A stretch of 64,000 nucleotides of DNA from Eledone cirrhosa (Eukaryota): positions 34,596,001 through 34,660,000 of the forward strand of contig OZ024747.1 in assembly GCA_964016885.1 (NCBI GenBank), written 5' to 3'. Position numbers and translations under genes: made by a program. Shown here in pieces: positions 2,290 through 62,564 of the stretch (position 1 is the stretch's first letter; every line of letters begins with the position of its first letter). Below the pieces are notes generated by a model. It saw only the letters and a program-made list of their open reading frames with translations, had not been told where the DNA came from and searched no databases.

Positions 2290-2628
2290 ATTTAAAAAAT
2301 AATGAATAAAACAATGAAACAGTTCCTTATATTAAACAAAAAAAGTTCATTATTTAACGATCGTTTCTAGGATATATATGTGTTAGAATTGGCATGCATA
2401 TTCAACAGATCTATGTACAAAATTATACAAAATTATACAAACTATCAAAATTAAATATACATAGCAAACACATATATATGCCGTCTTCAGAAATAATGAA
2501 ATATATTTATTGATAATAACAACAATTCAAAATTACAGGTCTGTTTGGGAGCAGAGTTCAAATTGACCAATGAAAATACAAAAAGTTTATACAGTTAGGT
2601 GTGTGTATATATATGTAAGTAACTTCGT
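2290..2628 (-). repeat. pLTR-like segment upstream of the PLE ORF; inverted copy at 6644-6985
   Basis: 2290-2628 is the near-exact reverse complement of 6644-6985 (e.g. ACAGTTAGGTGTGTGTATATATATGTAAGTAACTTCGT versus ACGAAGTTACTTACATATATATACACACACCTAACTGT). Confidence 0.88.
2346..2500 (-). ncRNA. Type I hammerhead ribozyme with extended stem II (mirror of 6772-6926)
   Basis: Minus strand reads TTCATTATTT-CTGAAGA-[long stem II region]-GAAAC-GATC-GTT-AAATAATGAA. Confidence 0.7.
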
Positions 2629-2759
2629 TCACAGATATGCATAAAGATATATGTTCACATGCATACGCATGCCAAAAAGATGTATATAAATACAAAAATC
2701 CAAGGCTAATGTCTCTGTATGTTTATAATCTACAGATAAAATACGTATGCACATATAAA

Positions 2760-4560
2760 TATTAAATAAATATATACACACATTCATATACTCACACATA
2801 TACGTACATTCACACACACACGCGCGTATACGCATAAACATACACACAACCACGAACATACATACACACATACACCCCCACACACATATATATGTGTGTA
2901 TATACTATTATCATAAGCATATGGACATTAATGCGCGCACATAAACGCTGCCACACATATTTAGATCCAGATACAGAAAGTAAGTGTGGGGGGGGGGGGA
3001 AGAGGTCAGTATTCACCGGTGTCAACAGACTGCCTATTTATAAATGTATCTATAAACTTAGAAATAAAAAGAAAAGAAAAAGAAAAAAGAAATATATCAA
3101 GAGAATATATCTATATATATATACATACAGACACACACATATATATACATATATACACACACATATATATACATAGACATATATATAAACAAGTAAAATA
3201 TAAAATATACATCGATATACATACATATACATATATATATATATATATACACATATACACATACATGCATATACATACATATACATACACATATACACAA
3301 ACACATACATACACATACATATACATACATACACCATATAAATACACATACACATACACACACGCATACATATAGAGACACATACATATACACATATAAA
3401 TACATAGACATATACACACATATATATATATATATACATACACATACACGCATACATATATATATATACATTCACAACACACGTATATATATATACATAT
3501 ATATATATATATATATATATATATATATATATACACACACATCTACACACATATATAAATACACTCATGTATATACACACATACACATACATACCCACAC
3601 ATAAATATATATATATGTATATATACACACATATACACATACATACACATATACACATATACATATATATATATGTATATATATACACACCCATATATAT
3701 ATACACACACACATACACACACATACACATACACATATATAAAGATATATATACACACACACCCACATATAATAAATATATATATATATATATATATATA
3801 TATATATATATATATATATATATATATATATATACACATACACACACATACATATATATACACACATACATACACACACATACATACTCATACATAGACA
3901 TACATATATACACACACACACATACACACATACATATACGCATATATACACATACATAAACATCCATGTATGCGTATATACATACAAAACAAACACCACC
4001 GCACGCTCACACAACTCAGACATACATAGATAAAGGGATATACATACATGTATATACATATATAAATAGAGATACATATACATATATAAATATATACACA
4101 CATACACACACAAACACACATACATATACATACATACATACATACATACATATACACACACATACACACATATACATATATATATATATATATATATATA
4201 TACATATATATATATACATATATATATACACACACATACATATACATATATATAAAAAAATAAAGAAATAAGATAAATAGATAAATAAATAAATTAATAC
4301 ACACAGTCAGACAAATATGCACACACATACATATACATATATATATACACACACACATACATATATATACATATATATATATATATATATATATATATAT
4401 ATATATATATATATATATATATATATATATATATATATATATATACACACACATACATACACACATATACACATATATACACACATACATACATCAACTA
4501 CAAATATATATATATATATATATATATATATATATATATATATATATATATATATATATT
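2760..4560. repeat. Compound (TA)n/(CA)n/(TACA)n microsatellite field
   Basis: Directly visible; it generates the YIYI/CVCV pseudo-ORFs. Confidence 0.97.
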
Positions 4561-4719
4561 TGGATTTAATGCTCTGAAATAGCGATACATATGTGAAGAC
4601 AAACATAGAATATTCGAAAATATTCTGTATGTTTATAATAAACATTTTGAAGACCTAATCGCTATAGAATAGAATACATCACGTATTACAATTTGAGATT
4701 CTCGATAAAAGCAAGGGAA

Positions 4720-61600: not shown

Positions 61601-61627
61601 AAACCCTTGTGGTTAATAAAGAAAACA
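55643..61627 (+). mobile_element. Full-length Tx1/L1-like LINE, A-type 5' end, inactivated
   Basis: ORF1 from 55860 (stops at 57365 and 57914); ORF2 57998-61383 with frameshifts at ~58250 and ~58858 and a short deletion at ~58993; C-terminal CPRC..ETVLH...C finger; (TTA)n tail. Confidence 0.95.
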
Positions 61628-62506
61628 TTATTATTAGTGTTATTATTATTATTATAATTATTACTTTATTATTCTGTTTGTTATATTTGTTATCACCGTT
61701 GTGTTTACGTTCTTAGCATTTGATTTAGATTAGCAGTTAAGAGATAATAGAGAATTGTGTAAACACCTTGAAAGTCAGCCAAAACCACGATATGGTGTAT
61801 CTCGTACTTTGAAGCTAGGTTATTTCACGGAAACTACTTACGATCCAAATTAACATCAAATTTTTCTATTACACCTAAAGCAAATGTTCAAGATTTAAAC
61901 ATACCCCACCCCTCCACAAACACACACACACACATGCACACACACACACACACACACACACACACACACACACACACACACACACACACACACACACACA
62001 CACACATACACACACACATACACACATACACACACACACACATATATATATATAAATGAATTGAGAGGGACGTGGCTGTGTGGTTACTGATAATGATTGT
62101 TAGAAAATAAAGGGACAAAAACAGTTGTCTACTGCAGTTTCCAAATGTTTCAGCGCATTATGGGAAATAGATTTATCCGTAACGTGCTCCTAGCTTTTTA
62201 TCTATCACAAAGCTATGAGGGAAAGAAGCGATAGCCACGAGAGAGAGAAAGGAAAAAAATGAAAAAGGAAGAAAACATCCCGATATATTTATATATATAT
62301 ATATATATATATTCAGGTTTGAGGTTCACCACTGTATAGAGCTGGTCTATTCCGTATGGTCAATCGTAATGCAATAATATAGAGAGTACTCAACGTAAAG
62401 CAGTTCAACCGTCTTTGTGTTTGTAGTTGGTGGTGCTATTACGGAGTTAAATATTATAATGAAATGACAGGAGGCTGGATTTGTGTAAATCCTTGAAAGG
62501 TTTATT

Positions 62507-62564
62507 ATACTATGATCATTTCAATGACCGGGTTCCGTATGAATCCGGTGATATCATCAGGTAT
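62507..62564 (-). ncRNA. Type I hammerhead ribozyme
   Basis: Minus strand: ATAC-CTGATGA-TATC-ACCGG-ATTC-ATACG-GAAC-CCGGT-CATT-GAAA-TGATCA-TA-GTAT; stem III is the palindrome ATGATCAT. Confidence 0.82.

Follow-up and report, generated by a model that had tools for sequence, protein, structure and literature searches.

The window analysed here is a stretch of 64,000 nucleotides of the Eledone cirrhosa genome (assembly GCA_964016885.1, contig OZ024747.1, positions 34,596,001 to 34,660,000), and the frames of Penelope-like elements (PLEs), element ends, tandem arrays and type I hammerhead motifs present in it are listed in Table 1. When the window was scanned for the type I pattern CUGANGA...GAAA...NUH with a stem I of at least 5 bp, 9 matches were found, compared with 0.14 +/- 0.37 (maximum 2) in 300 local dinucleotide shuffles. 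Seven of these 9 matches are motifs listed in a preliminary description of this DNA; another, the intact hammerhead of family K, was absent from that list, and the remaining match (33960-34064), which is weak and has a 78-nt stem II, is probably due to chance. The motifs at 33475-33517 and 62507-62564, which were read from the sequence, have intact cores and a proximal stem I of 4 bp, under the cut-off of the scan; the motif at 62507 is also recovered by the whole-genome pattern described below. All 9 motifs which the preliminary description had called intact are, therefore, present with intact cores. A stricter scan, which also demanded the first pair of stem II, gave 0 matches in the window because in these families the first stem II position is U-U or C-A, and this requirement was relaxed afterwards. 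Rfam reported no hammerhead at gathering score in the whole window, and of the 172 matches with E<=1 for positions 2000-36000, the 150 which were listed include no hammerhead. In the standard numbering of hammerhead positions, the core C3-U4-G5-A6-N7-G8-A9, G12-A13-A14-A15.1, U16.1-H17 is found in families A-F and K (the letters A-K are those assigned in this analysis). Six other motifs had been described as damaged relics. For four of them this description holds: at 9554 the 5' arm of stem I is lost, and GAAA is replaced at 9989 (by CAAA), 23875 and 29641; these are damaged copies, as other genomic copies are intact. However, the other two (27508 and 28442) carry a core change which is the norm of their family, as discussed below. 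Where motifs occur as a pair, the two represent two arms of one insertion, and the 9 intact motifs are thus derived from 6 insertions.

Table 1. Frames, element ends, arrays and hammerhead motifs in the 64,000-nt window. Clade names are assigned from motifs, and the cleavage sites are predicted.
Feature	Positions	Strand	Details
Family A reading frame	1..2046	-	RT with RWR and DKT; 96-99% identical to 707-aa frame P0001 of locus L055
Family A upstream pseudo-LTR	2146..6643	-	5'-truncated copy of long microsatellite-rich 3' region
Family A hammerhead	2346..2500	-	Stem I 10 bp; stem III CGAUCG; predicted site GUU
Family B retrozyme-type insertion	4558..5197	both	312-nt unit; in (TA)n inside A
Family B hammerheads	4720-4762, 5020-5062	-, +	Stem III CGCG; predicted site GUA
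Family A inverted 5'-truncated copy	6643..7005	+	(TA)n end; holds hammerhead 6772-6926
Family G retrozyme-type tandem	9273..10302	+	427-nt unit; damaged hammerheads 9554, 9989
Decayed Neptune/Nematis-type PLE frame	11703..12563	+	33-68% to P0002/P0003
Family C element end	21945..22632	-	About 115-nt tail; hammerhead 22076-22126
Family J hammerhead, damaged	23875..23930	+	TAAA for GAAA; stem II resembles that of E
Family H broken frame	24856..26562	+	Second Hydra-clade PLE; intact 706-713-aa frames elsewhere in genome
Family H hammerhead-fold motif	27508..27558	+	U4A core (CAGAAGA); 950 nt past end of frame
Family H second motif	28442..28492	+	U4A
Family I hammerhead, damaged	29638..29708	-	GAAC for GAAA
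Family D two-arm retrozyme-type insertion	33033..33387	both	317-nt unit
Family D hammerheads	33065-33110, 33206-33251	-, +	Stem III CAGAUCUG; predicted site GUC
Family E solo 3' end	33411..33633	+	Neptune/Nematis-type PLE; hammerhead 33475-33517
Family K hammerhead, intact	35434..35500	+	From type I scan
Family F tandem element, minus arm	62306..64000	-	2,828-nt, non-coding; about 142-nt tail; hammerhead 62507-62564

Families A and H are, as judged from their protein motifs, autonomous PLEs of the Hydra clade. In both of them a single frame (707 aa in P0001, 706-713 aa in H) codes for an RT with a GIY-YIG endonuclease domain at the C-terminus (YRDD, VY..YIG), and contains the motifs RWR and HSDKTG and a linker of the CxCX5C form (CNCRNKANC / CNCRNRADC), with no CCHH. 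In PMC8557442 the Hydra clade is defined by an RWK-like motif, DKT, CxCX5C and no CCHH. The same source draws the PLE layout as a pseudo-LTR, a frame, an inverted 5'-truncated copy and a one-sided tail; in A and H the partial tandem, the inverted 5' copy, the tail and the (TA)n target are all present. In motifs, (TA)n targets, layout and 3' hammerhead, they are thus similar to the Hydra-clade PLEs reported there, which include Hydra-1_Obim of Octopus bimaculoides. No Pfam family was matched by the three PLE proteins, and the Atlas neighbours carry PF26215, RVT_1 and GIY-YIG. The window copy of family A has a single frameshift near 1057 and continues beyond the left edge into the neighbouring stretch (L067), with its pseudo-LTR preceding the reading frame as a partial tandem. 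Copies of this family are 98-99% identical, several of them carry a 600-700-aa frame, and the hammerhead lies 3.2-3.5 kb past the end of the frame in 9 placements and 4.5 kb past it in a tenth. The stem II region, predicted to form one long hairpin, is also kept in random genomic copies. However, whereas the published Hydra PLEs are mostly <3 kb and few in number (PMC8557442), family A is about 6 kb long, has a stem II of 116 nt and includes 3.5 kb of microsatellite-rich 3' region, and Hydra-type elements are very abundant in this genome (58,611 first-look candidates).

Family E is, again on the basis of sequence motifs, the end of a Neptune/Nematis-type PLE, although these motifs do not separate Neptune from Nematis. 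Its hammerhead is found 207-290 nt past the end of the endonuclease in 5 placements, and protein P0003 has a CIDKKCIIC linker (CX2-5CxxC class) and a C..C..H..H endonuclease. A decayed frame of this type is also present in the window, and directly upstream of it is a 48-nt tandem repeat (10837-11709), which may be the expanded Asn-rich N-terminus of that frame. At two other loci (L103 and L113), the family E motif is followed by a hammerhead of family J, which lies 487 nt past the end of the endonuclease; the occurrence of both motifs after one frame could reflect either two different motifs or a nested insertion.

The insertions of families B and D are of a different kind. Like family G, they consist of a tandem unit of 150-450 nt containing one type I hammerhead each and no ORF, as in retrozymes; the animal non-LTR retrozymes (PMC7229834; 10.64898/2026.07.22.740005) are similarly low-GC tandems of such units. 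B and D align across the whole unit, stems I and III changing in pairs between them, and these two families are homologous by this sequence evidence. In the window, family B has a minus arm (4881-4558) with a 30-nt tail and a plus arm (4883-5197). Its layout was determined for 39 loci, viz. 38 from the best-scoring 40 of 443 candidates plus L064, after a diverged neighbour copy at L224 was dropped; as the loci are the best-scoring ones, young copies are favoured in this set. Two diverging arms are present in 31/39 loci and one arm in 8/39. Of the 31 two-armed loci, 27 have a tail of 24-35 nt on one side only and a TATATA unit end on the other, 4 are irregular and none has two tails. Most of the B ends adjoin (TA)n, and the loci hold 1-12 full units. 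Based on these observations, family B carries at the nucleotide level the insertion signature of a PLE, and the B arrays are therefore likely to form at insertion. The two-arm layout is also seen in many examined loci of D, F and G. No autonomous partner for B was found among 1.77 Mb of fetched DNA, and none was identified for C, D, F and G in the fetched loci.

The inverted pairs could in principle be regarded as fold-back artefacts of sequencing or assembly, and many other inverted repeats do occur in the window. However, point changes distinguish the arms, whose ends fall at two distinct, fixed positions, the same layout is described for PLEs (PMC8557442), and the contigs of one public run, which is possibly the source of the window itself, join both arm orientations at several other positions. 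An artefactual origin is thus hardly credible. A more serious question is whether the arrays are solo PLE ends which were amplified locally by unequal crossing-over after their insertion. Published work (10.64898/2026.07.22.740005), in which a PLE origin is argued from co-occurrence and homology, suggests local amplification, and two of our observations agree with it: units are more alike within a locus than between loci (divergence 0.56% within an arm and 2.05% between loci, the latter figure being raised by the divergent-subfamily locus L064, which has many units), and a few variants are confined to neighbouring units of one arm (L214, L234). However, both arms are multimeric and in the same register, with inner units that are 5'-truncated; units in opposite arms are as alike (0.61%) as neighbouring units; and the arrays are young and scattered over many chromosomes. 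We therefore regard amplification after insertion as improbable for the origin of the arrays. The variants shared by the arms suggest that both were copied from one template or source, although they could also stem from a homogeneous source array or from later gene conversion. Cleaved linear monomers were considered as the template, but this is unsupported, since 0/62 of the 5' junctions come within 5 nt of the site where cleavage is predicted (about 2 are expected by chance) and the arms run through the site; seven junctions which map to unit position 1 probably reflect the edges of alignments. A circular B unit folds more stably than its shuffles (z -4.3), and circular templates have been proposed for retrozymes (PMC7229834). 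Overall, the B data favour a circular template over local amplification, and later local expansion may add units. Contigs resembling family B were also noted in three runs deposited under three other organisms, one of 340-342 nt in each, which are 95-99% alike and, when compared with window positions 4560-5230, close on themselves at the B period; an array or a circle would both fit them, and contamination or a related species are possible sources.

The remaining families are less uniform. Family F, whose plus arm lies outside the window (L068), is a non-coding tandem element of 2.8 kb, in contrast to the reported retrozyme units of up to 972 bp. For family C, a tandem of about 221 nt was found in 1/20 tail loci, and in 0/20 does the tail continue into a shared unit or a frame. 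A Hydra PLE ending in C was considered but found no support in these loci, as the endonuclease/RT fragments near C in L126 and L235 are not collinear with other C copies. Stem III of this family is able to close as a monomer. In the preliminary description, most of the motifs were taken to be ORF-less ribozyme mini-elements of many independent lineages, densely clustered in the window. This interpretation is correct to the extent that B, D and G are tandems of retrozyme type, F lacks an ORF, no frame has so far been linked to C and the stem sequences vary among families. However, A, E and H form the ends of coding, autonomous PLEs, B and D are homologous across their whole unit, and stem II has a U-U pair at its base in all of B, C, D, F, G and H. 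Of the six families with motifs called intact, 2 are PLE ends of this autonomous type and 3 are non-coding, with C lacking a linked unit or frame.

The clustering in the window is also not supported when the remainder of the genome (3.0 Gb) is considered. Eighty random 10-kb stretches were asked for, of which one did not exist; the 79 scanned (790 kb) gave 50 matches, compared with a mean of 0.6 in 12 shuffles, and this density of about 63 per Mb extrapolates to about 190,000 motifs genome-wide. Compared with this sample, the window's 8 matches are not unusual (bootstrap P=0.10). A whole-genome pattern, limited to motifs with a 6-nt stem III and an 11-36-nt stem II and leaving stem I and inner stem III unselected, gave 142,346 matches versus 15,569 for the reversed control, and in the window it found 2 matches where 3.0 were expected. 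The excess over the control amounts to at least about 127,000 motifs for this one subclass, or at least 42 per Mb. On these pattern counts the genome can be taken to hold well over 100,000 hammerhead motifs. The motifs in the window are thus dense relative to shuffled sequence but not relative to the genome; a hotspot is ruled out by both counts, and the window is an ordinary sample of the genome. With its density inside the genome's range, with coding PLEs ending in A, E and H and with B and D related, it is very improbable that most of the motifs represent independent mini-elements gathered in this window. Instead, the motifs are very probably, on the sequence evidence, type I hammerheads which lie at the 3' ends of PLEs and of the non-coding tandem repeats which those PLEs likely mobilise, in a window of ordinary content.

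The stems of the motifs show the features expected of PLE-type hammerheads, as the preliminary description had stated. Among unselected matches, stem I is paired in 26/30 and stem III is self-complementary in 26/30, versus 0/24 and 4/24 for shuffled matches; in a second set, stem III is an exact palindrome in 17/33, and is self-complementary in 23/33 with wobble pairs and in 30/33 when 1-nt loops are counted. This self-complementarity would fit the published dimer model. Stems I-III pair and covary, with paired changes between B and D and between two subfamilies of C; the first pair of stem II is frequently mismatched. The U-U pair at this position is also seen in 14/26 of the published Hydra rows (PMC8557442 supplement, our own count, in which U at position 17 is found in 10/26) and in the axolotl HHR_Amex2, and U10.1-U11.1 is a known natural variant (PMC3088659). 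For C, D, H and K, the predicted minimum-energy fold of the monomer differs from the hammerhead fold. Additionally, a decayed hammerhead absent from the earlier list, 71% like family F, was noted at 8458-8570 on the minus strand.

Family H differs from all the others in its core. At both 27508 and 28442, stems I, II and III are all pairable and U4A is the sole core change. Genome-wide, an exact H 30-mer occurs in 18,366 copies with A and in 72 with U, the latter being at the level expected from later mutation, and A is present in 66/66 aligned rows. These motifs are therefore not damaged copies, and U4A is the norm of the family. In all 12 fetched H copies with intact frames (96-98% identical, picked from the longest frames among 140 scored matches), the sense strand contains the A4 motif, downstream of the frame in 10 and upstream in 5. 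As it lacks U4, family H is classed here as a hammerhead-fold variant and a putative ribozyme. The lowest-energy monomer fold is 2 kcal/mol more stable than the hammerhead fold, and most of the subfamily changes are located 5' of the motif, a distribution that no more than hints at constraint on it. As a family with the U4A core has reached at least 18,000 copies, either cleavage is possible with A4 or the element can do without efficient cleavage. We also considered that H has exchanged dimer control for a weakened core; however, family C can close stem III as a monomer, yet its core is intact. At position 4 all 26 published Hydra rows have U (PMC8557442), in contrast to A in family H. For a U4C variant of a viroid, slower cleavage in vitro with infectivity supported is reported (PMC3088659), while U4A is not mentioned in the accessible part of that source. 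Our literature searches for U4A, and for U4C with a cleavage rate, gave no match; Lunse et al. 2017, which may cover U4A, was outside their scope. A C4 core (CCGAAGA) with a stem III of CAAUUG was also observed in another Hydra-type family (locus L120 near 7320, and L235).

The above results bear on whether most of the hammerheads are catalytically unimportant passengers, with the fold acting at the ends of PLEs as a signal that is structural or bound by protein. The spread of H with U4A and of another family with C4 would agree with this, as would the published reports that Naiad PLEs have spread without canonical hammerheads (PMC8557442) and that PLE hammerheads are weak cleavers in vitro. 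However, the rest of the core is kept over many diverged families while their stems change in pairs, and related retrozymes of other animals are reported to self-cleave and to give circles. Among predicted Xenopus retrozyme dimers, cleavage was seen in 1/9 (10.64898/2026.07.22.740005). A passenger role for most of the hammerheads is, in our view, unlikely. For the interpretation of the motifs as the ends of PLEs and of repeats mobilised by them, the following mechanism may be envisaged. The GIY-YIG endonuclease of a PLE would cut (TA)n, and the reverse transcriptase, starting at a fixed 3' point, would copy the RNA of the element either from both ends of the cut or by switching strands, each of which could give rise to two 5'-truncated arms. 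For family B, the template would likely be a monomer in circular form or a multimer left uncut, and arrays would thus arise on insertion. Tandem transcripts would be cut by the hammerheads, in most cases in the dimeric form made possible by the self-complementary stem III, and the cut transcripts could release monomers able to circularise.

As the kinds of element involved are already known, a census of this type is in itself no discovery. The PLE pseudo-LTR hammerheads reported in PMC4209133 similarly have a type I core, a palindromic stem III and many consensus families per genome, and they occur mostly as solo truncated copies, with opposite-strand pairs 100-700 bp apart, as is the case here. 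However, in this genome stem III is usually 4-8 nt or longer, and for a single subclass the excess over the control, at least about 127,000, compares with 2,000-9,000 per genome in that work. Relative to axolotl (120,000 motifs in 28 Gb, or about 4 per Mb), the load of at least 42 per Mb above control, or about 63 by sampling, is very high, and Rfam nevertheless detects none of the hammerheads in the window. A search of the literature on octopus or cephalopod hammerheads or ribozymes found no census, and the words 'ribozyme' and 'hammerhead' occur 0 times in PMC13282606. Retrozymes have been proposed to be non-autonomous PLE derivatives (PMC7229834; 10.64898/2026.07.22.740005), but for those of animals mobilisation by PLEs rested previously on co-occurrence and sequence likeness, to which family B adds an insertion signature at the nucleotide level. 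We have not found the two-arm, one-tail layout described for retrozymes; 'inverted' occurs 0 times in PMC7229834, and the layout was not seen in the main text of 10.64898/2026.07.22.740005. This PLE signature on retrozyme arrays, together with a family with fixed U4A, a 116-nt stem II and the very high genome-wide load, are the additions made by the present work. The need of PLEs for hammerhead cleavage has been called unclear (PMC8557442), and family H, with its fixed U4A and intact frames, makes this question directly testable. Going further, it is conceivable, though we hold it only tentatively, that H represents an unreported active core variant or else a PLE which has spread without efficient self-cleavage, and that retrozyme arrays are written in one step, as two diverging arms, by a PLE RT rolling on circular RNA, at about 10x the ribozyme density of axolotl.

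Several other repeats are present in the window. Copies of a LINE (AP endonuclease, RT, zf-RVT), several of them 93-97% identical, occupy 38178-61663 and include a 6.2-kb inverted pair (41300-47488 / 54248-60415). Further fold-back palindromes are found at 12771-13305, 27625-27713 and 29714-29820. A SINE-like family of about 190 nt occurs in tandem and inverted copies (7066-7267, 15225-15409, 28550-28717, 31032-31431 and 48672-49646), in which no hammerhead core was seen. Lastly, a tRNA-like repeat is present at 7268-7874 and 28722-28960, with Rfam tRNA matches at 7407-7478 and 7693-7764; it is itself an inverted pair and may use the same two-arm mode of insertion.
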